DNA of 64,000 bases, taken from the IMG/VR virus record IMGVR_UViG_3300018080_000003, positions 32,001 to 96,000 of that record; one strand, written 5' to 3'. Positions 309 through 32,607 of the stretch are shown here, piece by piece; the stretch's first letter is position 1; the number at the start of each line of letters is the position of its first letter. The notes below the pieces were generated by a model that did not search any database, had not been told where the DNA came from, and saw nothing but the letters and a program-made list of their open reading frames with translations. The stretch comes from a virus. The position numbers and the translations under genes are program-made.

Positions 309-983
309 ATGCGTTCGCTCCTGAAAGACCTCCGCTACCATGCTGCTCGTCGCCTGACTCTCTTTCTGGAGGGGGAAGAGGCGGAGCGTGATGACGCTGC
401 GTGGGCGAAGATGCACGAGGAGGAGCTTCGTGCTGTGGAGGCCGAGTCTCAGGCTATCGATGGCCAGCTGGTTCCTCGTGGTGAGGATGATGAGCCAGAG
501 TGGACGGAAGAGCAAGTGAGGGCTTTCGAGAAGGCCCTAGACGCTTCTGATCGAGCCTTGGATGACATTGGGGAGAAGCTGTTGGCTTTTGAGCAGGAGA
601 AGAGGTACACGGAGGCGGAGTTTCAGGCGGCGGTCAAGGACCTGAAGCGTAAGAACTCCGAGTACTTCGATGTGATCCGCTCTTTGGAGCGGGAACGGGA
701 CGACTGGCAGAAGCGGTTTCAGGTACATGTGAGCGGCCATCTGACGGCGCAGTCGATGTACGAAAGGGATTTGGTTCGCTCTCGGCAGGTAGGGGCGACG
801 CTGCTCAATAAGTTCAACGAGTACCGTGTTGAGAAGGGGGACGCTCCGATTGAGTTGCAGCGTCTCTCGGATATTCTGCCTGTGGATGGTGAGCCTGTGG
901 GTACTTTCAAGAAGCAGGTAGACGAGCACATCTCGCTCCTTCGGAGTCTGGATGAAGCGTTCAAGGCGTCTAGTCCCGAGTGA
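309..983 (+). CDS. Hypothetical coiled-coil protein
   Basis: 224 aa, charged helical composition, genome-typical codon usage. Confidence 0.7.
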   Translation: MRSLLKDLRYHAARRLTLFLEGEEAERDDAAWAKMHEEELRAVEAESQAIDGQLVPRGEDDEPEWTEEQVRAFEKALDASDRALDDIGEKLLAFEQEKRYTEAEFQAAVKDLKRKNSEYFDVIRSLERERDDWQKRFQVHVSGHLTAQSMYERDLVRSRQVGATLLNKFNEYRVEKGDAPIELQRLSDILPVDGEPVGTFKKQVDEHISLLRSLDEAFKASSPE

Positions 984-1028: not shown

Positions 1029-1106
1029 CATCCCTGAACTCAGGTCAGCTGGTTTCGAACACAGCGCGGTTTGACCCTGGAGTGCCTCGCCGGAGGTGCG
1101 TCCGAA

Positions 1107-3356
1107 GTGTCCCGCACGAAAGCTCTGACCCGACCCATCACTCGCAAGCAAGCGAGGTCGTACAACCGAACCGTCCCAAACGGTCGCGGTGTGACGGCAC
1201 TTGCTGAGGTGAACGGGAAAGGCGCTTACAAGCGGCGCTACCAGGCCACTCGCCGGCTCCTGAAGAACGGCAGCGGGAGTGACCAGATGTACACAGCGGC
1301 CCAAAAGCGCGCGATGAAGAAGATGAGCCCGGCTCAGCGCGCATCTTTCAAGAAGATGCTCAAGCGCGCGCCCTCGATCGCAACGCTTGAAAAGAAGCGG
1401 AAGGCCTCGGCGAAGCGCAAGGCCGCTCCCCAGCGGATGAAGTCGAACGGTCGACGAAAGTCGACGACCACGCGCTCAAAGATGACGCCGAACCGGCGCA
1501 AGACGCGCGCTGGGTCCACGGCTCCTCGGAAGTCGGATTTTATCGAGGCGCAGATTTCTCGTGGCCGCACCAAGAAGCAGGCCGAGTCTTCCTGGAAGCT
1601 CGCGCATGGCCGCCACTACAGCAAGACGGCCGCGAAGGGTGCTGCCAAGCGCAAGCGCCGTCGCGTCTACGGCAAGGGCAAGTACAAGGCTGTGAAGGCC
1701 CGGATTGGTCCCAAGAGCCGTTTCACCTACAAATACACCTCCAAGAGCCGGCGCAGCGGCAAGGAGTCCCTGCGGGACATTCCGGACCATGCGCTCCTCG
1801 GGTTCAAGACCCGCAAGGCCTATCTGGAGGTCGTCCGCGACATCGGCGAGTGGGGCCTCCCCCCCAAGCGCGCTCGGCGGGCGAAGGCGCTGGAGAAGCG
1901 CCTTGATCGTCTCGCAGCTCGAAGAGAGCGTGCTGCCGAGAGAGCCGCGAAGCGCATCAGGGCGGGTCGCGGCATGTTCACACCGAACGATGGGAGCAGC
2001 GCGCTCTCGTACGAGGAGTTCGAAGACATGAAGATGCGTCGAAACATCAGAAAGAAGTCGACCAAGAAGAAGGCGACTCGCAAGAAGACGACCGCGAAGC
2101 GGACTTCGTCGGCGAAGCGTCGTGCCGCGGCCAAGAAGGCTGCCGCGACCCGGAAGCGCAACGCGGCGAAGCGGAGCGCTGCGGCCAAGAAGGCGGCTCG
2201 GACCCGGAAGCGGAAGGCGACTGCCAAGAAGCGCACCACCAAGCGCACCACCAAGCGCACGACCAAGCGTCGCACCACGCGTCGCGTACGTCGGACTCGT
2301 GTCGGGCCGCGCAGCGCAGCGATGCGTCGTCGCAAGGGCAGCGTGAGCGTGAGCTACGCGGCCAACAAGCCGAAGCGTCGGAAGAAGGCCGCCAAGAAGC
2401 GCACGTACAAGAAGACCATCACGGTCGGTCGTCGTGGGCACAAGGTGCGCATTCGGTACCGCGCGAACCGCATGTTCAAGCGCAACGAGGGCTTCGTCAG
2501 CCAGCTGACCAAGAGCCTCAAGCTTGGCGCCGTGGTTCTCGGTGGCTACCTCACGCATCGCGTTTTGACTCGCGTCATCGACGACAACGTGACCAGCAAG
2601 ATCGGAGCGCTCAACGAGGGCACCCTCGGCAAGTACCGCACCCTCATCTCGGGCGCGGCGACTGCGGCCATCGGTATCCCCGCGGCCATCGCTGGTTCGC
2701 GCGCGGCCAAGATGCCCGATATCGCGGCTCCCATCGCAGGCGGCATGGCTGCCAGCCTCATTCAGTCGCTCATCGTGACCGTCCTGGGCGAGACCGCTCC
2801 TGAGTACGCCGGCTACTTCAGCAACTACGCGAACGCGGGTGGCACGGCCACTCCCGGCGGGGTTCTCGGCAGCTACTACACCCTTCCCCAGGCGGGCATG
2901 GGTTCGTACTACGAGTTCCAGCCCCATCAGATCATGCCGGCTGCCGGCATGGGCCAGCTCACCCAGGCTGCTGCGGGCATGGGCCAGCTCACTCAGGCTG
3001 CTGCGGGCATGGGCTCGCCGATGCTCACCCAGGCTGCTGCGGGCATGGGACAAGCGATGCTGACCCAGGCCGCTGCGGGCACCGGTGAGTACGTGGCTTA
3101 CGCCGCGAACGGCATTGGCGAGTACGAGGAGACTTCGGTTTCCGCGTCTCCCATGATGGTGGACGAGGGCATTCACCCGAACCTGCACAGCGCGGAGCAG
3201 GCTCTCACCGTGGCCGAGGCCGCGGCGGGCGTCGGCGCTGCCGACATCCCCCTCCAGTCGACCGTGGAGCCCACCGTCATCGCTGATCCGATCAGCGATG
3301 CGCCCAGTGGCTCGCGTGCCGGCGTCTTCCAAGGCGGCGACGGCATCTTTGCCTGA
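1107..3356 (+). CDS. Basic histone H1/protamine-like core protein with membrane segments and C-terminal AGMG repeats (possible polyprotein)
   Basis: GGAGGT SD 9 nt before GTG 1107. About 470 aa K/R-rich (AAKKAA, KRTT repeats), then about three hydrophobic helices, then LTQAAAGMG repeats. Confidence 0.8.
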   Translation: MSRTKALTRPITRKQARSYNRTVPNGRGVTALAEVNGKGAYKRRYQATRRLLKNGSGSDQMYTAAQKRAMKKMSPAQRASFKKMLKRAPSIATLEKKRKASAKRKAAPQRMKSNGRRKSTTTRSKMTPNRRKTRAGSTAPRKSDFIEAQISRGRTKKQAESSWKLAHGRHYSKTAAKGAAKRKRRRVYGKGKYKAVKARIGPKSRFTYKYTSKSRRSGKESLRDIPDHALLGFKTRKAYLEVVRDIGEWGLPPKRARRAKALEKRLDRLAARRERAAERAAKRIRAGRGMFTPNDGSSALSYEEFEDMKMRRNIRKKSTKKKATRKKTTAKRTSSAKRRAAAKKAAATRKRNAAKRSAAAKKAARTRKRKATAKKRTTKRTTKRTTKRRTTRRVRRTRVGPRSAAMRRRKGSVSVSYAANKPKRRKKAAKKRTYKKTITVGRRGHKVRIRYRANRMFKRNEGFVSQLTKSLKLGAVVLGGYLTHRVLTRVIDDNVTSKIGALNEGTLGKYRTLISGAATAAIGIPAAIAGSRAAKMPDIAAPIAGGMAASLIQSLIVTVLGETAPEYAGYFSNYANAGGTATPGGVLGSYYTLPQAGMGSYYEFQPHQIMPAAGMGQLTQAAAGMGQLTQAAAGMGSPMLTQAAAGMGQAMLTQAAAGTGEYVAYAANGIGEYEETSVSASPMMVDEGIHPNLHSAEQALTVAEAAAGVGAADIPLQSTVEPTVIADPISDAPSGSRAGVFQGGDGIFA
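2945..3080 (+). repeat. Tandem coding repeat LTQAAAG(M/T)G x4
   Basis: ctcacccaggctgctgcgggcatggg unit repeated with variation. Confidence 0.9.
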
Positions 3357-6584: not shown

Positions 6585-7253
6585 ATGTACACCTCTGTAG
6601 GACAGCTATCCGGATACGGACCTTGGGGCCGCAATGTTGCGGAGACCGATGAGGTGTACGTGTGGCGCGGTATGTTTGATGGTGCGCAGATCCTCACGCA
6701 GCAGGACCTGCAGGCCATCGTTGCAAGTGTCGGGAAGAACCAGAGTCTGGACTTCGACATCCGCGGCGTAACGGTCAAGCCTCTGGGTGGCAGGAATAAC
6801 AAGGTTGAGGTGGCCTTCACCACGAAGATCCCTCGTATTTACGCGCTCGACCCCGACTTCATCACGGATAGCGCTTCCAGCATTGCTCGGAAGCTAGAAG
6901 CTGACCTCGCGTCTCGCTTCGGACCGTTCCGTGTCGAGGATCCGAAGTTCCTCGCGATCGATGACGATGAGCCGAAGCATCCCGCCTTGGACTTCTGGCT
7001 GTCGCACGCGACCCTCTGGGATCAGCCTCTCATCGGAGATGCGATCCCCACCCAGGCCTGGGAGAAGTTCCAGGGCATGTACAAAGGATCTGTCGATCAG
7101 GGAATTGCCCTGAAGAAGTGGCAGAACCCCTCCGACCCGAGCTCGGGCAATGGAGACACTGAGAAAGACCATACCATCTTGTGGGCCATCGGCGGCGCAG
7201 CCGTGCTGCTTGGAGGCTTCTACTTGATGCGAAAAGGAGCAGCAAAAAGATGA
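6585..7253 (+). CDS. Tail-anchored membrane protein 1
   Basis: Starts MYTSVGQLSGYG. C-terminal TM plus RKGAAKR, no signal peptide. Confidence 0.8.
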   Translation: MYTSVGQLSGYGPWGRNVAETDEVYVWRGMFDGAQILTQQDLQAIVASVGKNQSLDFDIRGVTVKPLGGRNNKVEVAFTTKIPRIYALDPDFITDSASSIARKLEADLASRFGPFRVEDPKFLAIDDDEPKHPALDFWLSHATLWDQPLIGDAIPTQAWEKFQGMYKGSVDQGIALKKWQNPSDPSSGNGDTEKDHTILWAIGGAAVLLGGFYLMRKGAAKR

Positions 7254-7843
7254 GTTACGGTGGAGTTGGTTCGTACTACACCCTTCCTGGCATGGGTTCG
7301 TACTACACCCTTCCTGGCATGTCCGGGTTTGGCTCGACGGCCGACACCTTCGATGCCGCGGCGGTGTGGGCAGACGTGCAGCTTGGCGGCTCGTGCTACG
7401 GCGCGCAGGGCGTCATCAAGGGCTCGAACGTCGGCGCGTGCAACGCGGCTGGTGGTCGTGCGGCTCGCGCGATCCAAGCGGCGCTCAACGAGATGGGCTA
7501 CGGCCCGCTGGCCGTGACGGGCAAGTGGGACGGCGCGGTCTCGGGCAAGTGGAAGCGTTTCCTCTCGGATCACGGCCTTCAGCCGGGACCGGGCCTCGGT
7601 GTCTCCGAGCAGGGCCTTCTCCTGATGGAGAAGCTCCTGAAGGAAGGCAAGACCCCCGGGCCCAACAAGCCCATCGTCTACGACAAGCAGGGCGACCAGT
7701 ACATCCCGCGTGATGCCGGACCCGGCACCGCGACCGCGGGCATGGGCGCTGGTGGTCTACTCCTCGGCGTTCTCGTCATCGGTGGACTCGGCTACGCGGC
7801 CTACCAGAGCGGCAAGAAGCGGAAGGGTCGACGCGTCCGATGA
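7250..7843 (+). CDS. Tail-anchored membrane protein 2, peptidoglycan-binding-like domain
   Basis: GSYYTLPGM x2 then MSGFG. IQAALNEMGYGPLAVTG resembles PG_binding_1. TM plus KKRKGRR. Confidence 0.75.
   Translation: MSYGGVGSYYTLPGMGSYYTLPGMSGFGSTADTFDAAAVWADVQLGGSCYGAQGVIKGSNVGACNAAGGRAARAIQAALNEMGYGPLAVTGKWDGAVSGKWKRFLSDHGLQPGPGLGVSEQGLLLMEKLLKEGKTPGPNKPIVYDKQGDQYIPRDAGPGTATAGMGAGGLLLGVLVIGGLGYAAYQSGKKRKGRRVR
7268..7321 (+). repeat. 27-bp perfect tandem duplication
   Basis: ggttcgtactacacccttcctggcatg x2. Related sequence at about 2870-2910. Confidence 0.9.
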
Positions 7844-11707: not shown

Positions 11708-12286
11708 ATGGAGATCGATTTTCGACAGATGCTCTTTGGGGTGGGCAGCACCGCTGTTCAGAGCCTCCGTTCGGGCAATCCGACCACCGACAGCTACGCA
11801 CAGGCGGCGGCTCGTCTTCTCCAGCATGCCGGCAAGTGGTCTGCGGTCAGCCAGTCGGGGGTACGTTGTACGACGCGTCAGCGCACACCGATCGGAACGA
11901 CTGAGATCTGTCGAGCCCCTGGGATTGGAGCCTGTGTCGTCTGTGACCAGCCGACTTGTTTCAACCACTCGATGATCTCTCCCCATGATGGAACGCAGAT
12001 CTGTTTTGGGTGCGTGGGGCGTTCTCAGCAGCAGTACCGTGCGGGTGGTCCGGCAGAAGCTCCTGGGGTCAGCGACGCTGAGAAGAAGGCGGATTGCCTC
12101 ATCGTACTTGGCCTCGCGGGAGAGGTGACTTGGGCTCAGGTCCAGGCGGTCTACAAGGCTATCGCCAAAGAGCAGCACCCCGACAAGTTCCCTCCCGCTC
12201 AACGGAAGGAGCAGGAGAAGAAATTCAAGAAGATCAACCAGGCCTATGAGTGGCTCAAGGCCCACTACGAGAAAGAAGCAGCATGA
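11708..12286 (+). CDS. Zn-finger plus C-terminal J-domain protein
   Basis: CxxC-x4-CxxH..CxxC, then VLGL..YKAIAKEQHPDK..FKKINQAYEWL with intact HPD. Confidence 0.9.
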   Translation: MEIDFRQMLFGVGSTAVQSLRSGNPTTDSYAQAAARLLQHAGKWSAVSQSGVRCTTRQRTPIGTTEICRAPGIGACVVCDQPTCFNHSMISPHDGTQICFGCVGRSQQQYRAGGPAEAPGVSDAEKKADCLIVLGLAGEVTWAQVQAVYKAIAKEQHPDKFPPAQRKEQEKKFKKINQAYEWLKAHYEKEAA

Positions 12287-17251: not shown

Positions 17252-17519
17252 TGAAGACGCCCTTCCGGGCTCCGCGTCGTTCCAGGTTGGGAACGACACT
17301 TACATCGTCTGGGTTCCTTCTGTCACCGCGCTGCGGTCGATACGCCCGACGAGCTTCAATCCTCAAGGGGAGACTGCAATCTATTCTGGTCCGACTGAGA
17401 TGATGATCTTGCCCCTCCCGATAGGGGAGGTGGCCGCGAAGATCGAAAAAGAGCGAAAGGGGTACTTGGAATGGCGAATGAAGCTGAAGAAGCGGGTGAA
17501 GGCTGGGCAAAGCAGCTAG
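17244..17519 (+). CDS. Hypothetical protein
   Basis: Fills gap in operon. Confidence 0.5.
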   Translation: MSSEDALPGSASFQVGNDTYIVWVPSVTALRSIRPTSFNPQGETAIYSGPTEMMILPLPIGEVAAKIEKERKGYLEWRMKLKKRVKAGQSS

Positions 17520-18805
17520 CTGGCTACCATGGCGCGTACAACGCGTCAGATCAAGATCGAGCCTTTCACCCGAGCACTCGTGCAGCTGAGCACGAGAAGG
17601 GTGTTGCTTTCATCTGTCCGTGGGAGGATCCCTACTCGGGGTTCGCGGAGCATTCTCGCCGCCTCGCTCGTGCTCTCAACGACGCGGGGCTTCCCACGCA
17701 CATGCGCTCGCTCGATGCGAGCATGCAGATGCACACCCAGTTCGAGCTGGGCGGCAAGGACAAAGTCGACCTGCGTGAGCAGTACCACGACCTGCTCGAC
17801 AAGAGCATCAAACATCTGATGGTCAGCGTCTACCATCTCGTCCCCGACGATGCTGAGCTTCAGGTTCTGACGACACACCGTCATCTGACGCCGGAGCAGC
17901 TGGAGTGGGCGAACAGCTACAAGATCATCTCGACGGTCTGGGAGCGGGATCGGATCAGCCCGGCTGCGACTCAGGCGTTGAACCGCGTGGGACAGGTCTG
18001 GACGGCGACGTCGCAGCACGCAGAAATGCTGGCGGAGTGCGGTGTGAACTCCGACAAGATCAAAGTCGTCCCGCTCCCCTATTCGAAGATCGATCCCATC
18101 TTCGACTTGCGAGGCCGCAAGCGCATGAAGGGCGTCCCTCGTTTCTACCATATAGGAAAGTGGGAGCCGCGGAAGGCCCAGCACGAGATGCTGGGTTGTT
18201 TCCTCCGCGCCTTCGAGCCTGGTGAAGCGAAGTTTTACCTGAAGACGAGCGAGACGTCGCCGGACTTCGGAGACTACCCGCGCAGCCCTGATGCGTCGAT
18301 CGAGCGCTGGCTGACGAAGGAGGGCCTCTCCGGCAAGTGGTCGTTGGATCAGGTCAACCAGAACATCCACGTCATCAAGAAACGGATCAGCCCAGAACAG
18401 ATCTTCCAGCTGCATCGGATGGGGGACATCTACTTGTCGCTCAGCCGTGGTGAAGGCTGGGACATGCCCGCCTACGACGCGAAGCTTGCGGGCAATCTCC
18501 TGGTCTGGACGGCAAGCGGTGGCCCGCAGGAGTACGCAGGACAGGACAGCTTCTTCGTGGACTCCCTCGGCACTCAGCCGGCTCATCCTTTCTACAAGTG
18601 GGACGACGCAGAGTACCTCAGCTGGGACTACGTTCACGCGGTCAAACAGATGCAGAAGGCGGCAGGAGAGGTCAACTCGACGCTGAAGCCGCCTGACCTT
18701 CCACCTCTCTCTGACTTCGATCGCTTCAGCCCAGAGTGCGTTGGTCAGCTGATGAAGTCGTTCATCGAAGAGCTGGTCGAGCAGAATGAGGAGCGGTGGT
18801 CATGA
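17471..18805 (+). CDS. GT-B (GT4-like) glycosyltransferase
   Basis: FYHIGKWEPRK and LSRGEGWDMPAYDA motifs. Confidence 0.9.
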   Translation: MANEAEEAGEGWAKQLAGYHGAYNASDQDRAFHPSTRAAEHEKGVAFICPWEDPYSGFAEHSRRLARALNDAGLPTHMRSLDASMQMHTQFELGGKDKVDLREQYHDLLDKSIKHLMVSVYHLVPDDAELQVLTTHRHLTPEQLEWANSYKIISTVWERDRISPAATQALNRVGQVWTATSQHAEMLAECGVNSDKIKVVPLPYSKIDPIFDLRGRKRMKGVPRFYHIGKWEPRKAQHEMLGCFLRAFEPGEAKFYLKTSETSPDFGDYPRSPDASIERWLTKEGLSGKWSLDQVNQNIHVIKKRISPEQIFQLHRMGDIYLSLSRGEGWDMPAYDAKLAGNLLVWTASGGPQEYAGQDSFFVDSLGTQPAHPFYKWDDAEYLSWDYVHAVKQMQKAAGEVNSTLKPPDLPPLSDFDRFSPECVGQLMKSFIEELVEQNEERWS

Positions 18806-19113
18806 TGTGGGTTGTATCTTTTGCAGTTTCTGAGGACAACGTCGTCTTGATGGGCACCTTCTCCGAGCGGCTTGAAGCTAAGCGGTTTGGCGAGAGGGTC
18901 GCCAGGCGACAGGGCTACAAGGGCGAGCTGTCTTGGCATGATGGCTCCGAGACGTTCTGGTTCGAAGAGCCAGGACTCGAAGGCGGCTTCTTCATCACGC
19001 AGCCCGTCTCCAGACTCACCCATGAAGGCAAGAAGGCACAAATCGACATCAGTCGACCTAGCTTCGAGAAGGTGTTCGATCTGATGGAGGAAGAAGAATG
19101 CCAAACCGCGTAG
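18802..19113 (+). CDS. Hypothetical protein
   Basis: Coupled ATGA overlap. Confidence 0.55.
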   Translation: MMWVVSFAVSEDNVVLMGTFSERLEAKRFGERVARRQGYKGELSWHDGSETFWFEEPGLEGGFFITQPVSRLTHEGKKAQIDISRPSFEKVFDLMEEEECQTA

Positions 19114-22100
19114 GCATCGTCACCGTCGCTGATAGTCGCAAGGGGCTGTGGCGCGACATGGAAGTCCTTAGCTGGGCCGTCAGCATGCCGCCCCCCAGGG
19201 CGGAAGGCCAGCGTGCTCAAGGTTTGAGCGTCTTCTGTGCGAAGATGAGTGACCGCGTCTCCCCTTCGGTGGTGAACAGCTTGCCGGAGGGCGGTAGCGC
19301 GGGGGCACCCCTGTTCCAGGGCACCTTCGAAGCGTTTGCACAGACATGTGATGTGGTGGTCTTCTTCGAGACCTTCTACATCAACCTCGTCAAGCATCTG
19401 GTCGAGAAGGGTAAGCGCGCGATCTACGTCCCGAACCTCGACTGGGCGACCTGCTCAGACGGAGGCTCGATGGCGTGGAAACGTCAGATCAAAGAGCTTC
19501 AGAACTCGACTGACAAGTTCCAGGTCTGGGCTCGGCAGCCTTCGATTGAGCATGCGCTTTTGGAGCATGGTGTTCGGAGCGAGCATGTCCCTTGGTCGAT
19601 CCCTGATGAGATCGTTCGTGAGCCTGAGGTCAAGGCTGACGATCAGCCCTTGAAGTTCTTCGTCAACGCAGGCTTCGGAGGCCACAAGGGACGTCGCGCG
19701 GTGGACCTCGTGCTCAAGGCCTTTGCGAAGGCGAAGAAGCGCGCCCCGATGGAGCTAATCGTCAAGAGCATCAAGCCTCTCGTCGAGTACGTCGGAGATG
19801 CGATGGGTTGCATCGACGAAGACGTCGGTGTCATCGAGGGCTTTAGTCCGCGGACTCAGATCGATCAGCTGATGAAAGAGGCTGATGTTGTAGTTAGTGT
19901 CTCTCGCTGGGAGGGGTTCGGTTACGGTGTCATCGAGGCACTTCATGCGGGCAAGCCAGTGATCACACATGGTGGTTGGCCTGTTGGTGACGCGGTCACT
20001 CACAAGCACAACGGTCTCCTGGTGGAATGCGCATCTCAGGGGAAGTTCAACCTGACGCCTCACTGGGAAGCTGACGTCGACTCCATCGCCGATGCGATGG
20101 TCGAGCTTGTGACAGATCGCGATCTGTTGCGTCGTCTCACCGCACCCTGCCCGGCGGAGCTTCAGGCGCGCCAGTACGCGTTCATGCTTCGCGCTCGCGC
20201 TCTTCTCTTCGAGGAGCCTGAGCCGCGGGTCGTCATCTTTGGGAGCGAGCAGCATTTAGCTCAGCCTTCTGAGAAGTACTGGCAGATGGCGCTCGAAGCT
20301 CACGGCTATCGGGTGGACTACCAGCTGGCGAAGGGCGGCAACTACGGCGCGACTCTCGCGAAGTGGTGCGATTTCATCCTAGTGGGCAAGGCGCGCTTGG
20401 AGACGCTCAAGAAGGTCCGTGACAACAACGCACACGACGTGCCGGTGATTGTCTGGCATCACGACTACGGGACGGTTGTCAGCGAGCTTCACGACAACTT
20501 CCTCAAGTACGGCGATCTCGTCTTTGCTCCCTACGAGCAGGACGACGTGAACTATCTTCTACCGGGTCCTCGCTCGGGTGGCGACCGCGGCCGGGGCCTT
20601 CGCCGCACCTACAAGAAGCGGGCGGAGCCCGAGCATGACGTCGTGTTCATCGGTGGGGACTCCTTCGAGCGGAAGGCGATCCTCAAGCAGCTGAAGGCTG
20701 AGGTTGGCCTCGTAACGTTCGGCCCTGGGATGGCACACCCGCCTGTGTACGACGCCTCAGCTGACGACGTCTACAGCAACGCGAAGATCGCTCTCAGCCT
20801 TTCTCGCTTCAACGACACGCCTGGCTACACGAGCAACCGGCTGTTTCACGCAGCCGCGCTTGGGACGGCTGTCTTCTCGCACACATTCCCTGGTGATCGA
20901 CAGCTTTTTCCAGAGAAGCTTGCTGGCATCTTCTTCGTCCGTGGTGGCGACATGTCAGCGTCGATCCAGAAAGCGCTCATCGGCTGGGATCACCTCAAGG
21001 GACAAGCGCAGGAAGTGGAGAGCTACTGCTGGCGCCACCATTCTTGGCACGATCGGATCTACCAGATGGTCTGGCGGATCCACAAAGCCATGACGGACAT
21101 CCGAGACAAACGTCGCAAACGCAACCGGAAGAAGAAGCCGCCTCGCAACGCTCTGCAGTTCATCCCGAAAGGAAAGCCCATGGCACCCCCGAAGCCGCCT
21201 GTTGTTCAGACCCCTGACTGGAACGGACCGAAGAAGGTCAACATCGGATCTGGTCCGCGCGTCCATGCGGGCTACGAGAACATCGACGTGCGGCCGTTCC
21301 CTGGCGTGCGTCAAGTCGACTTGATGAAGGGCTTGCCGTACCCGGACAACGTTCTGCACGAGGTCCTGGCGGAGGATGTGTTGGAGCACTTCCGACCGGC
21401 GGAGCTGGTCAAGACGATCCTTCCGGAGATCTACAGAGTCCTCCGACCCGGCGGCAGACTGGTGGCGCAGATGCCCGACCTTCACGAGATGGTCAAGCAG
21501 TGGAAGCGTGGGGATGTTGACGATGAGATGATGTCGATGCGCATTCACGGTCGTCAGGACTATCCGGAGAACACGCACTACGCCTCCTACACCGAGGCGT
21601 CGATGACGAAGATCCTCAACCGCATCGGCTTTGGCACGGTGAAGCGTCTCGACACCCGGAACTGGAACATGGTGCTGGAGGCTCGCAAGGGCCCAGCGGA
21701 GGCTCCGCAGCAGAACCACCGCAAGGAGTTCAAGCCTCAGCCTGGCAAGGGCGACCAGACGGACTGGAACGCGTACTGGGAGCAGCGCTCACAGAAGATG
21801 GGACAGCTCTCGGTCACGCCGGGGAGCTGGAACGAGCTGCGTCAGCGCCAGGAGACGGACAAGCTCTTCAAGCTGATGGAGGTCGAGTGGCGCAAGCGTT
21901 CTGGCGCTGTCGTCATGGACTATGGCTGCGGCGTGGGCCGGATGTCGCGCAAGCTCCAGGAGGCGGAGGTCAAGGTCAAGGGTGTCGACGTGTCGCCGAA
22001 CATGGTGATGATCGCGCGGAAGAACGGCGTGGATGCCGATCTGATCGAAAACAAGCGCATCCCCTACGAGGACGACACCTTCGAGGGTCTCTTCGTCTGC

Positions 22101-22409
22101 ACCGTGCTGCAGCACATTCCTGACCTCGACCTCAAGGCAGCGGTGGAAGAGATCAAGCGCGTGCTCAAGCCGGGCGCTTTCATCATGCTCTTCGAGAACT
22201 GCGAGGGTCGCTACGGACGCACGTCTTCGAGTGGGCATGTCATTTTCCGTGAGCCGGGTGAGTATGCTTCTCTCTTCGAAGGGATCCAAGAGGTACTTCG
22301 CTACAACATCGAGGGCGAAGACCACGTCCTCATGTGGGGCACGCTCGCGGGCGAGCCTGAGGCGGAAGCCGAGGAGTCTGAAGGAGAGCCTGAAGAGACG
22401 GAGTCATGA
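19098..22409 (+). CDS. Multidomain enzyme: GT4 + CgeB-like glycosyltransferase + two SAM methyltransferases
   Basis: SRWEGFGYGVIEA; SNRLFHAAALG; VNIGSG..DVLEH..RVLRPGG; MDYGCGVG..GVDVS..VLQH..RVLKPG. Confidence 0.9.
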   Translation: MPNRVGIVTVADSRKGLWRDMEVLSWAVSMPPPRAEGQRAQGLSVFCAKMSDRVSPSVVNSLPEGGSAGAPLFQGTFEAFAQTCDVVVFFETFYINLVKHLVEKGKRAIYVPNLDWATCSDGGSMAWKRQIKELQNSTDKFQVWARQPSIEHALLEHGVRSEHVPWSIPDEIVREPEVKADDQPLKFFVNAGFGGHKGRRAVDLVLKAFAKAKKRAPMELIVKSIKPLVEYVGDAMGCIDEDVGVIEGFSPRTQIDQLMKEADVVVSVSRWEGFGYGVIEALHAGKPVITHGGWPVGDAVTHKHNGLLVECASQGKFNLTPHWEADVDSIADAMVELVTDRDLLRRLTAPCPAELQARQYAFMLRARALLFEEPEPRVVIFGSEQHLAQPSEKYWQMALEAHGYRVDYQLAKGGNYGATLAKWCDFILVGKARLETLKKVRDNNAHDVPVIVWHHDYGTVVSELHDNFLKYGDLVFAPYEQDDVNYLLPGPRSGGDRGRGLRRTYKKRAEPEHDVVFIGGDSFERKAILKQLKAEVGLVTFGPGMAHPPVYDASADDVYSNAKIALSLSRFNDTPGYTSNRLFHAAALGTAVFSHTFPGDRQLFPEKLAGIFFVRGGDMSASIQKALIGWDHLKGQAQEVESYCWRHHSWHDRIYQMVWRIHKAMTDIRDKRRKRNRKKKPPRNALQFIPKGKPMAPPKPPVVQTPDWNGPKKVNIGSGPRVHAGYENIDVRPFPGVRQVDLMKGLPYPDNVLHEVLAEDVLEHFRPAELVKTILPEIYRVLRPGGRLVAQMPDLHEMVKQWKRGDVDDEMMSMRIHGRQDYPENTHYASYTEASMTKILNRIGFGTVKRLDTRNWNMVLEARKGPAEAPQQNHRKEFKPQPGKGDQTDWNAYWEQRSQKMGQLSVTPGSWNELRQRQETDKLFKLMEVEWRKRSGAVVMDYGCGVGRMSRKLQEAEVKVKGVDVSPNMVMIARKNGVDADLIENKRIPYEDDTFEGLFVCTVLQHIPDLDLKAAVEEIKRVLKPGAFIMLFENCEGRYGRTSSSGHVIFREPGEYASLFEGIQEVLRYNIEGEDHVLMWGTLAGEPEAEAEESEGEPEETES

Positions 22410-23790: not shown

Positions 23791-24849
23791 ATGAAGATTC
23801 GACTGTACGGCGTAGACCGTGGAGAAGGCAGCTGGACGCGCGTCAGCCGTGGGGTAAAGGAAGGCCTGGAGGCTTGCGGTGCGCTTGCGTCGTTTCTGAA
23901 TGTCAGCCGGGTGGATGATCCTGGCTACGACTCCCTTGACCAAGGTTTTGACGCTCCGGTCGGTTTGACGATCGGTCCGCCGATGGCGGCTAGCGTGATG
24001 ATGGGGCGTGGAGAGCATTATCGGCGCCTGCTGATGATCGCGAGCAACAGCTCGTGGTTGCCCCGAAGCCTGATGGAGCGGTCGGACAAGATCGTCACGG
24101 GCTACGTTGGTCCGAGTCAGTTCTCGATTGAGGTGATCAAGAGAAACACGCTGATGACGAAGAGTCTCCACCTCTACCTGCATGGGGTGGACAAGGCTTT
24201 TCAGCCGATGCGCGGGGTGCGGAAGCCGAAGGGGTGGTCGGTGCTTCACATGGCTTCGACGCACATGCAGCGTAAGGGAACGCGGGAGCTTCTGTACGCG
24301 TGGGGCTTGGCGCTCCGGAAGAAGCTGATCCCTCAGGACAGCGTTCTTCGTCTGGTGATCGATGGCCCGAAGGGGGTATATCTTTCGGAGATCCATAAGG
24401 CGACGCAAGGGATCGTTGAGCACGCGGAGAGCATCGTGGTTCTGCCGCGCCTAGAGCTTTCTGTAGATGATCTGCGTTTCTTCTACGCGCAGCACCACTT
24501 GGTGGCTCAGCCTTCTCGGGCCGAAGGGTTCGGCATGGTTCCTTTGGAATCAAGGGCCTGTGGTGTCCCTGTGCTCGCGACGGCTTGCACCGGTCATGAG
24601 GAGCACATCCAGCCGGCGGATGGCATCGTCGTGGTACCGCATGGCTTGAACGGTCCGATCGATGATGGTCCGGGAGCGGAGGCGCCAACTGTTTCTCCGG
24701 AGGACATCTGTGAGGGCCTCATCGAGGCTTACGATCGACGAGAGGTTTTGAGTGCGCTCGCGATGGAGCAGTCGGCTTACTTTCGGGATGTTTGGTCCTG
24801 GCCGAAGGTGACACAAGAGTTTCTCCGGTCTCTTGAAGCTAGCTCTTGA
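23791..24849 (+). CDS. GT4-like glycosyltransferase
   Basis: QRKG and PSRAEGFGMVPLESRACGVP motifs. Confidence 0.9.
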   Translation: MKIRLYGVDRGEGSWTRVSRGVKEGLEACGALASFLNVSRVDDPGYDSLDQGFDAPVGLTIGPPMAASVMMGRGEHYRRLLMIASNSSWLPRSLMERSDKIVTGYVGPSQFSIEVIKRNTLMTKSLHLYLHGVDKAFQPMRGVRKPKGWSVLHMASTHMQRKGTRELLYAWGLALRKKLIPQDSVLRLVIDGPKGVYLSEIHKATQGIVEHAESIVVLPRLELSVDDLRFFYAQHHLVAQPSRAEGFGMVPLESRACGVPVLATACTGHEEHIQPADGIVVVPHGLNGPIDDGPGAEAPTVSPEDICEGLIEAYDRREVLSALAMEQSAYFRDVWSWPKVTQEFLRSLEASS

Positions 24850-31777: not shown

Positions 31778-32100
31778 TGTCTAACGAGAAAACCCTTCTT
31801 CCGCCTCTGATCACGGAAGACCGCGCCCGCCGCGAGCGCACCCTCGATGCGGTTCAAGGTCAGACGATTCATTCCATTGTGGAGACGAGCCCCGCGACAG
31901 TCGCCAAGGCCCACTTTGCCTATCAGGCCTTTCTGGTCGACAAGGTCGAGCAAGCTTGGCTCTACACTCAGACGAACTCCAATCTGCTGTCTAAGGCCGT
32001 AGCCGTGGACACTTCTACGCCTTGGCTCGACAACGTGACCTCGAACGGTCTGACAATTCGGGCGAACATCATCGCCCAGCTGGCTTCACCGGTACCGTAG
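31777..32100 (+). CDS. Hypothetical protein
   Basis: TAATG coupling to spike 4. Confidence 0.65.
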   Translation: MSNEKTLLPPLITEDRARRERTLDAVQGQTIHSIVETSPATVAKAHFAYQAFLVDKVEQAWLYTQTNSNLLSKAVAVDTSTPWLDNVTSNGLTIRANIIAQLASPVP

Positions 32101-32607
32101 TTGGAGACCTTCGAGCCGGCCCATGACCATGGTGTCGGACTTGTTTCGGATCTCCCACTTGAAGCTCTCGTTATTGAGCGCTCGCAGCCTACGACGCTGC
32201 ACCTGACGGATGGCATCCTCTGGGCCGCAGTTGGTGAGTATGCGGATGGCGCAGGCGTTGATGAGCCCGCTCCGGTTCCATCCGGCCATGCAGGTGACCA
32301 GCACGGGCTCAACAGCGGCTCGCTCTGCGACCCACAGCGCCGCGACGAGGACCGCATCCCACTCCTGTTGACTGAGGGGGTCACCATCGTCTTCGAGCGG
32401 CACGCGCAGCACGCGCATCCCCACGTAGTTGCTCTGGCTGGGCTGGTGCTCCTTGGCGGAGAGCACGAGGCTCTTGAAGCCGGCGCGCTGAAGCATCTCA
32501 CCGGGAGGAGCCATCCCGCCCTGCCAGACGTTGGGGATGACCTCATCGGCGTCGATCGGTTCAGGCTCGTTGAGGATGTACCGTTCGAGGTCGTCGATAG
32601 CTTTCAT
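32086..32607 (-). CDS. Dual-specificity/tyrosine phosphatase family protein
   Basis: VLVTCMAGWNRSG CX5R loop and upstream PLEDD acid loop. Confidence 0.9.
   Translation of the reverse strand: MKAIDDLERYILNEPEPIDADEVIPNVWQGGMAPPGEMLQRAGFKSLVLSAKEHQPSQSNYVGMRVLRVPLEDDGDPLSQQEWDAVLVAALWVAERAAVEPVLVTCMAGWNRSGLINACAIRILTNCGPEDAIRQVQRRRLRALNNESFKWEIRNKSDTMVMGRLEGLQLRYR

Follow-up and report, generated by a model that had tools for sequence, protein, structure and literature searches.

A conserved asparagine motif in the basic core proteins of a large family of uncultured viruses

Genomes are condensed by cleavable basic proteins in adenoviruses, poxviruses and some giant phages. We know of no such proteins in membrane-containing tailless bacterial viruses, and of no case in which asparagine is the fixed residue. 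The subject here is a short motif, an asparagine preceded three positions earlier (-3) by phenylalanine, methionine or tyrosine, that recurs in a basic protein, the core protein, of one such candidate virus. Its gene lies in the window, a stretch of 64,000 nucleotides comprising bases 32001-96000 of the 143,727-bp IMG/VR virus record IMGVR_UViG_3300018080_000003, for which direct terminal repeats are on record.

Among phages, prohead proteases recognise L/I-x-E in T4 and A/S/G-x-E in phiKZ and SPN3US, and the inner-body proteins of phiKZ are cut into several pieces. Self-cleavage that depends on asparagine occurs in the coat proteins of nodaviruses, tetraviruses, reovirus (mu1) and picobirnaviruses (the MEROPS N families) and in bacterial YscU/FlhB, at N-P-T-H; the scissile bond of these asparagine peptide lyases follows the Asn, and Asn-Pro is the classic self-cleaving bond. 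In adenovirus, the protease AVP cuts pVII and pre-mu at (M/I/L)XGG-X or (M/I/L)XGX-G, and both the core and its hold on the shell are loosened (PMC4246237). In giant phages a short motif marks where packaged head proteins are cut (PMC10052503).

The asparagine motif in the core protein and its family

The core protein has three parts: a basic part of 460 amino acids (aa; residues 13-472), a predicted membrane anchor and an acidic tail of Gly, Ala and Gln. The basic part has a pI of 12, with 162 Lys and Arg (35%) and 21 Asp and Glu among its 460 residues; residue numbers throughout are those of the 761-aa open reading frame (ORF) from TTG 1071, not of the likely start at GTG 1107. Twelve Asn fall within residues 1-472, and eight have Leu, Met, Phe or Tyr at -3: LLKN66-G, MKSN126-G, MTPN141-R, FTPN306-D, MRRN325-I, YAAN432-K, YRAN466-R and FKRN472-E. 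An earlier reading of the DNA letters by themselves (the sequence-only reading) had listed these contexts together with VPN37-G and EVN48-G; all of them are present, and SYN32-R and RKRN364-A, which it did not list, complete the set. Its observation that the sites separate basic blocks holds as well, the fragments between motif sites being 54, 60, 15, 165, 19, 107, 34 and 6 aa long, plus a 289-aa anchor and tail, and all between-site fragments having a pI of about 12 except the acidic one of 19 aa. So does its remark that the last site falls just before the membrane domain: FKRN472 stands directly ahead of the first helix of that region.

The gene, the parts of its product and the motif sites are as follows (window coordinates, strand).

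1107..3356, +, core-protein gene (223 homologues; 199 clusters by profile search)
1107..1268, +, conserved N-terminal segment, residues 13-66, holding x-x-P-N37, A-E-V-N48-G and L-L-K-N66-G
1437..1448, +, motif site M-K-S-N126, lineage-specific, in a stretch predicted to be disordered
1482..1493, +, motif site M-T-P-N141, with RRK after it, a short way ahead of the folded domain
1518..1970, +, predicted folded domain, about residues 150-300 (predicted local distance difference test, pLDDT, 85-96 in the full model and 83.8 when modelled alone)
1977..1988, +, motif site F-T-P-N306, in the linker directly after the folded domain
1989..2045, +, conserved acidic spacer of 19 aa, net charge -2, ending in motif site M-R-R-N325
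2355..2366, +, motif site Y-A-A-N432, in a disordered basic stretch, with N in 71/121 family members
2457..2486, +, two anchor-proximal motif sites, Y-R-A-N466 and F-K-R-N472, N472 being present in 121/121
2487..2819, +, predicted membrane region, residues 473-583, with an amphipathic helix (473-506) and strongly hydrophobic helices at about 518-545 and 549-583
2820..3356, +, acidic C-terminal tail, pI 4.1, with GSYY modules, Q-A-A-A-G-x-G repeats and a conserved end (R749, G751, F760)

The core protein holds nine [FMY]xxN sites against 1.5 expected from its composition (p = 3e-5). In the remaining 196 crude ORFs, the control proteome being our own crude ORF call, 131 are found against an expected 118.7, which is no enrichment.

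Across the family, in an alignment of 121 members over the basic part, Phe, Met or Tyr occupies -3 of 44% of Asn against a background of 6.6%. Other offsets from -6 to +4 stay near background (maximum 11%, at -6), and for 11 other residue types the frequency of F/M/Y at -3 is 7.5% at most. Lys or Arg stands at -3 of 7.4% of Asn as against 25-49% for other residue types. Counted forwards, Asn is found at +3 after 26% of Phe, 19.5% of Met and 18.5% of Tyr, with Leu, Ile, Val and Trp at background; the general hydrophobic position proposed by the sequence-only reading narrows accordingly to Phe, Met and Tyr. Around the Asn of the basic part, Pro is enriched 4.5-fold at -1, and there is a strong depletion of K/R, G and P at -3; at the motif sites themselves, Pro stands at -1 in 28%, and Arg is enriched 1.5-1.7x at +1 to +3. 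Of the positions of the motif, -3 and 0 alone are strict, Ala being tolerated at -3, and a protein carries 5.7 motif sites on average.

Three sites recur in nearly all of the family. The columns of F-[TS]-P-N306 hold F in 112 of 121 members and P and N in 116 each, with FxPN whole in 112/121, and the same F, P and N are invariant in a 9-sequence alignment of the domain. An M-x-x-N follows FxPN by 12-23 residues, with M, W or Y at -3 in 93/112; the N325 column has N in 107/121. At [YF]-[RK]-[RK]-N472 the Asn is present in 121/121 and Y, F or M at -3 in 113/121. Most relatives also have an x-x-P-N-[RK] site ahead of the folded domain, at a variable position. In the N-terminal segment the column counts are P 91 and N 89 at N37, N 96 and G 92 at N48, and N 39 at N66. 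A second short signal, G-x-G, adjoins some of these sites: N37, N48 and N66 each stand directly before one (GRG, GKG and GSG; window 1179-1280, +), and a GRG directly precedes F-T-P-N306, so that the two signals touch at the N-terminal sites and here.

The association does not depend on shared ancestry. Among 42 members under 50% identity the motif is found at 41% of Asn against 7.7% from the local residue pool (z = 29); lineage-specific Asn of the same 42 carry it in 24-28% of cases against about 7% expected (z=7-12), and Asn in columns holding Asn in two or fewer sequences in 24% against 7% (z = 7). Motif sites occupy 118 alignment columns, 65 of these in a single sequence, although MAFFT is unreliable on low-complexity basic sequence and misalignment of homologous sites may have produced some of the lineage-specific columns. 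The local-pool test is independent of the alignment, as is an out-of-sample test on 74 unseen family representatives, which gave 38% against 7.9% (z=33).

In relatives that match the C-terminal half only (26-33% identity) and have no folded domain, the anchor-proximal site persists, as do tandem 'Arg run ... Y-D-D-N' units. Tandem units of 8-13 aa, each an Arg run ending in Y/F-x-x-N, stand just before the anchor in P0075, P0069, P0098 and L015. Unrelated tail-anchored proteins of related loci end in M-V-A-N, Y-D-K-N-P or Y-A-R-N plus an Arg run, or in M-A-A-N-R-R. The sequence-only reading had proposed an alignment of homologues to see whether the site is conserved while its spacers diverge, and this is the pattern found, with three near-universal sites, an Asn at 472 in every member, recurrence at non-homologous places, and persistence in 74 further representatives and in distant relatives. 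Judged by these sequence comparisons, the motif is a portable short linear motif. Its recurrence at non-homologous places, in unrelated proteins, in exposed linkers and at unit boundaries points to a recognition signal for a trans-acting factor. Two observations on the distant relatives may be added. The domain of residues 150-300 is absent, with longer Arg/Lys tracts instead, from L013:9089-11161, L014:8603-10906 and L015:9944-11854, and L013 has repeated T-H-R-[KR]-N-R-R units with His in the -3 place.

In an AlphaFold model made with the family alignment (the folded domain was also modelled alone), all eight motif sites lie outside helices and strands; N364, the sole helix-internal Asn, is without the motif. 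N141 and N306 bracket the folded domain, and N126, N141, N432 and N466 fall in disordered stretches. N66 and N325 come after helices, and N472 lies immediately ahead of helix 473-506, the first of the membrane region.

Cleavage after asparagine and the rival explanations

The reading that we tentatively prefer, though we rate it at a little short of an even chance, is that the motif is a site of cleavage after Asn. The Lys/Arg-rich basic part of 460 aa would coat the DNA, and the membrane anchor and acidic tail would fasten it to the membrane of the virion and, probably, to the shell. A maturation protease would read the signal, which consists of F, M or Y (sometimes Ala), two further positions of which the second is often Pro, and Asn, usually followed by Arg. 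Its cut after Asn would detach the basic part from the anchor and yield small protamine-like peptides and one folded domain; with the link between genome and membrane loosened, DNA could leave the particle, as in adenovirus maturation. Protease sites are typically strict at P1 and at a P4-like position and loose at P2 and P3, and the strict Asn and -3 with loose middle positions therefore support this reading. So do the conservation of the sites, their repeated gain at lineage-specific places and the portability of the motif. The tandem Arg-run/Y-x-x-N units before the anchor have the layout of a multi-peptide precursor, and the placement of the sites outside helices and strands suggests accessibility, which also supports cleavage.

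The nearest parallel is adenovirus. There pVII and pre-mu (pX), the substrates of AVP (adenain, MEROPS C5), are highly basic genome-condensing virion proteins; the core protein is basic too and would condense the genome in the virion. Their short site also has a hydrophobic residue four positions ahead of the cut (here a proposed one). Adenovirus mu, at 19 aa, resembles the proposed Arg-rich units of 8-13 aa. In the core protein, by contrast, the fixed residue is Asn and -3 is F, M or Y, the precursor would be membrane-anchored with many sites, and the host bacterial; nor is there sequence similarity to pVII or pre-mu. Residues 13-472 contain no adenain-type (M/I/L)XGG-X or (M/I/L)XGX-G site, and just two such matches occur elsewhere in the protein, LAGG at residue 6, ahead of the likely start, and IAGG within the membrane region. 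Because the basic part has no sites of this GG/GxG type and no C5 or C48 enzyme was detected, the system does not appear adenain-type by its defining features, yet it may work like one.

The head and ejection proteins of T4-like and giant phages are packaged with the DNA, and their short motif is likewise defined mainly by the residue that precedes the cut, together with a hydrophobic or small one close by (PMC10052503). P1 is Glu there and Asn here, those phages are tailed and of the HK97 fold with an S77- or S80-type protease, and their substrates, unlike the core protein as proposed, are not membrane-anchored or protamine-like. With Asn as its fixed residue and no S77 match, the core protein does not fit the prohead-protease substrates, which are marked by an x-x-Glu motif and an S77-type enzyme. 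Asparagine peptide lyases share with the present proposal the bond after Asn, and Asn-Pro makes up about 8-9% of the sites here. Their coats have a single site in a folded, assembled protein and need no aromatic residue at -3, whereas the core protein has many sites in disordered basic linkers, mostly Asn-Arg or Asn-Ala, and no sequence similarity to them. The core protein accordingly does not fit the lyases: a single scissile Asn inside a folded coat domain, cut upon assembly, characterises that class, and here there are 5.7 sites per protein, with 8/8 in the present one outside helices and strands.

Several results weigh against cleavage. No cleavage product has been seen. A Pfam scan of about 60 larger ORFs found no peptidase besides the M15 cell-wall enzyme. 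Six-frame profile searches gave no match for Transglut_core (PF01841) in this genome alone and none for the clan CD proteases C13 (legumain-type, PF01650) and C14 (caspase-type, PF00656) or for S77 (PF03420) in this genome and four relatives; for the clan CE cysteine proteases C48 (PF02902) and C5 (PF00770) the same five genomes yielded nothing at E <= 1, a search that a divergent enzyme could escape. A host enzyme or a divergent fold is possible as the Asn-directed protease. The motif is not enriched elsewhere in this genome, whether proteome-wide, in N-terminal regions or in a scan for Asn before K/R runs, and this lack of other carriers argues against a general maturation protease, for which more substrates would be expected. 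Pro follows Asn at roughly twice its background frequency, and the Asn-Pro bond is poorly handled by ordinary endopeptidases. Finally, N66, N325 and N472 are at helix ends in the model, so some of them may be structural caps. The want of a demonstrated cut, of a protease match and of other carriers in the genome, together with the excess of Asn-Pro, is what keeps our estimate for cleavage below even.

A more elaborate version, which we consider improbable, has an Asn-directed activity or DNA-templated self-cleavage freeing oligo-Arg peptides in the particle, with the tag acting as a portable cut signal by which relatives would load Arg peptides from unrelated membrane proteins onto the genome. 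Arg or Lys would head about 44% of the new N-termini. That the released peptides would then become bacterial N-degron substrates (Aat, ClpS, ClpAP), so that the next host itself strips the incoming genome, is pure speculation.

The main rival to cleavage is that the motif stays uncut and serves as a DNA-contact or packing module heading each Arg run, in which the Asn and the aromatic or Met residue would touch the DNA, as a docking site for an assembly factor or as a cargo-loading signal. We think this unlikely, if still a serious contender. The motif is tied to Arg runs through the Arg enrichment at +1 to +3, it precedes C-terminal Arg tails on membrane proteins of the relatives, Pro is tolerated at +1, and the protease searches were negative, all of which an uncut motif would accommodate. 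A candidate docking partner exists in an acidic coiled-coil protein, the gene of which adjoins the core gene in six of seven loci examined. Contact motifs, however, usually fix more flanking positions than the two that are strict here, and an Arg tail binds DNA without a cap: the tail-anchored proteins of this genome have plain K/R tails and no motif. To our knowledge, no DNA-binding or docking motif of such form has been described.

Structural capping comes next and is improbable. The Asn would act as helix caps or Pro-Asn turns bounding DNA-induced helices in the Ala/Lys/Arg-rich stretches, with the -3 hydrophobic residue packing on the cap. In the model N66 and N325 come directly after helices and N472 directly before helix 473-506; L-L-K-N-G resembles a Schellman-type C-cap, and Pro at -1 is common ahead of N-caps. 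But Ser, Thr and Asp, equally good caps and plentiful here, lack any preference at -3 (3-7.5%). Motif sites show no excess of Gly at +1 (0.8x), and the C-cap reading therefore suits few of them; Pro at -1, in 28% of sites, is incompatible with a C-cap altogether. Basic residues at +1 to +3 make poor helix N-termini, and half of the sites of this protein lie in predicted disordered stretches.

It is very unlikely that the motif is a sequon for modification of the Asn side chain by glycosylation, methylation, deamidation or cross-linking to Lys. Several glycosyltransferases and methyltransferases are encoded in the late region, and Asn-Lys isopeptide bonds and unusual Asn sequons occur in other viruses. 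Ser and Thr are not enriched at +2 of motif sites, which excludes an N-x-S/T sequon, and nor is the deamidation-prone Asn-Gly. Lys is often missing from the Arg-containing tandem units, where Lys-Asn cross-links are thereby ruled out, and a sugar would have no obvious role on a DNA-coating peptide.

Chance, low-complexity composition or shared ancestry might have been suspected, given that the first sighting consisted of 12 Asn in one protein and that homologous sites inflate raw family counts, but this is refuted by local-pool controls, non-redundant subsets, lineage-specific sites and the out-of-sample set (all z >= 7), by the restriction of the effect to Asn and to offset -3, and by its absence from the rest of the proteome.

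If the motif is indeed a site of cutting, it represents a new protease specificity and a sequence rule that predicts the mature virion peptides of a whole uncultured lineage; it would also support a mode of assembly in which the DNA is condensed by a membrane-anchored protein that is afterwards released. So simple a rule lends itself to a direct test on existing metaproteomes, in the form of peptides ending in Asn. Literature searches turned up no account of this virus group, nor of any Asn-directed processing site in virions.

The core protein, its gene and its genome

In the AlphaFold model the folded domain consists of helices, three strands, a short helix and then two further helices, the last one long. 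Beyond it are a long basic helix (345-382), disorder (384-470), three helices over 473-583 and a disordered tail. Fold searches with the whole model and the domain model returned membrane-bundle and coiled-coil look-alikes and weak HU/IHF rows, none of them significant. HU and IHF chains, plus pA104R, recur among the weak Foldseek rows for the folded domain; the HU/IHF matches have E values of 0.6-2.6 and template-modelling (TM) scores of about 0.3, and VIA-align gives a Z of 4.2 against 1ihf_A over 40 residues only. The order of helices, three strands and short helix in the first part of the domain is reminiscent of HU/IHF (DNABII) proteins, which include the African swine fever virus virion protein pA104R. 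Unlike these, the folded domain has no Pfam Bac_DNA_binding match and is dispensable in distant relatives, and its structural matches are not significant.

Only two Kyte-Doolittle peaks exceed 1.2 in the anchor. The predicted anchor may cross the membrane either two or three times, and the basic part and the tail may accordingly face the same side or opposite sides.

The acidic C-terminal tail shows no enrichment of the Asn motif. It carries GSYYTLP/GMGSYY modules and four or five Q-A-A-A-G-x-G repeats (window 2880-3090, +), in which conservation of Q632, A634, A635, G636 and G638 is 90% or more. A gene further on, the next but three (window 7181-7843, +), opens with MSYGGVGSYYTLPGMGSYYTLP, which, set beside the tail modules, suggests a short module common to the core tail and membrane-protein leaders.

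The start of the gene was read from the sequence.

1071-3356, +, open frame of 761 aa, opening at TTG 1071
1092..1109, +, likely Shine-Dalgarno sequence GGAGGT (1092-1097) and GTG start codon (1107-1109)

GTG 1107, which the sequence-only reading had also taken, is probably the real start, as GGAGGT lies 9 nt upstream and the family consensus N-terminus begins there. A TTGACC ... CATACT pair seen by eye upstream failed a consensus scan, and no promoter is claimed. The core protein has 223 homologues. All come from metagenomes, and the contigs that carry them reach 177 kb; among 1.84 billion cluster representatives, a profile search gave 199 clusters at 50% identity with E <= 1e-30. The family is thus large, with at least 199 such clusters, and none of its members has been studied. 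Sequence searches of Pfam, PHROG and the Protein Data Bank (PDB) gave no match to the core protein, and a tblastn search of GenBank phages gave none to its C-terminal half.

Natural split genes were considered on account of short anchor-plus-tail homologues and rejected, those on long contigs being contig-end truncations or the product of a 100-N scaffold gap in the basic region. Assemblies often break or carry N gaps in this repetitive region (L021:3622-5000; the contig starts of P0124 and P0132; L008:9770-10000), and the non-ATG start is often missed by gene callers; many database entries of the family are therefore truncated and look falsely split.

The gene content of the genome is like that of a bacterial virus, with a DnaG-type primase, helicases, an SLT transglycosylase, an M15 peptidase with a peptidoglycan-binding domain and one tRNA; its structural genes have no match in Pfam or PHROGs. 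The core gene stands at the head of a conserved capsid gene block. This position, the composition of the protein and its predicted helices fit the earlier suggestion of a basic, DNA-condensing and membrane-tethered protein, so far as sequence and model can speak to it. The best explanation is that the core protein serves a large bacterial virus, tailless and membrane-containing, as its major genome-condensing protein and would bind its DNA.

Neighbouring genes

One neighbour adjoins the core gene on its upstream side.

309..983, +, acidic coiled-coil gene, 224 aa, pI 4.9

In the one locus of the seven that departs from this arrangement, L007, a different, basic gene takes its place. Counterparts of about 190-230 aa and pI about 5-6 are found at L008:9116-9673, L016:8186-8758, L017:8786-9490, L018:9149-9730 and L019:9260-9850. 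In an alignment of six sequences R114, R130, D131, H144, E152, R159, N170, R173 and G198 are invariant. No family matches the protein, and in an ESM Atlas search nothing came up but coiled-coil look-alikes below 0.9; a role as chaperone or scaffold of the basic protein is conceivable, as is an enzymatic one.

A DnaJ-domain protein with 8 Cys recurs about 10-12 kb beyond the core gene, on its downstream side (window 11708-12286, +; at about 22 kb in L016, L017 and L019). Its gene sits within a block of genes for tail-anchored membrane proteins, and a J-protein is unusual in a virion module. A dual-specificity phosphatase-like protein, with a weak DSPc match below the Pfam cut-off (window 32086-32607, -), adjoins a membrane-anchored SLT transglycosylase. 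About 30 kb past the window end, a 1222-aa protein (L005:9788-13456, -) has a Phage_integrase (tyrosine-recombinase) domain at residues 308-487 only, the rest matching nothing. The late region encodes a 1103-aa fusion of two glycosyltransferase domains and a SAM methyltransferase (window 19098-22409, +) and two further GT4-type glycosyltransferases (window 17471-18805, +, and 23791-24849, +), which suggests that virion proteins are glycosylated.

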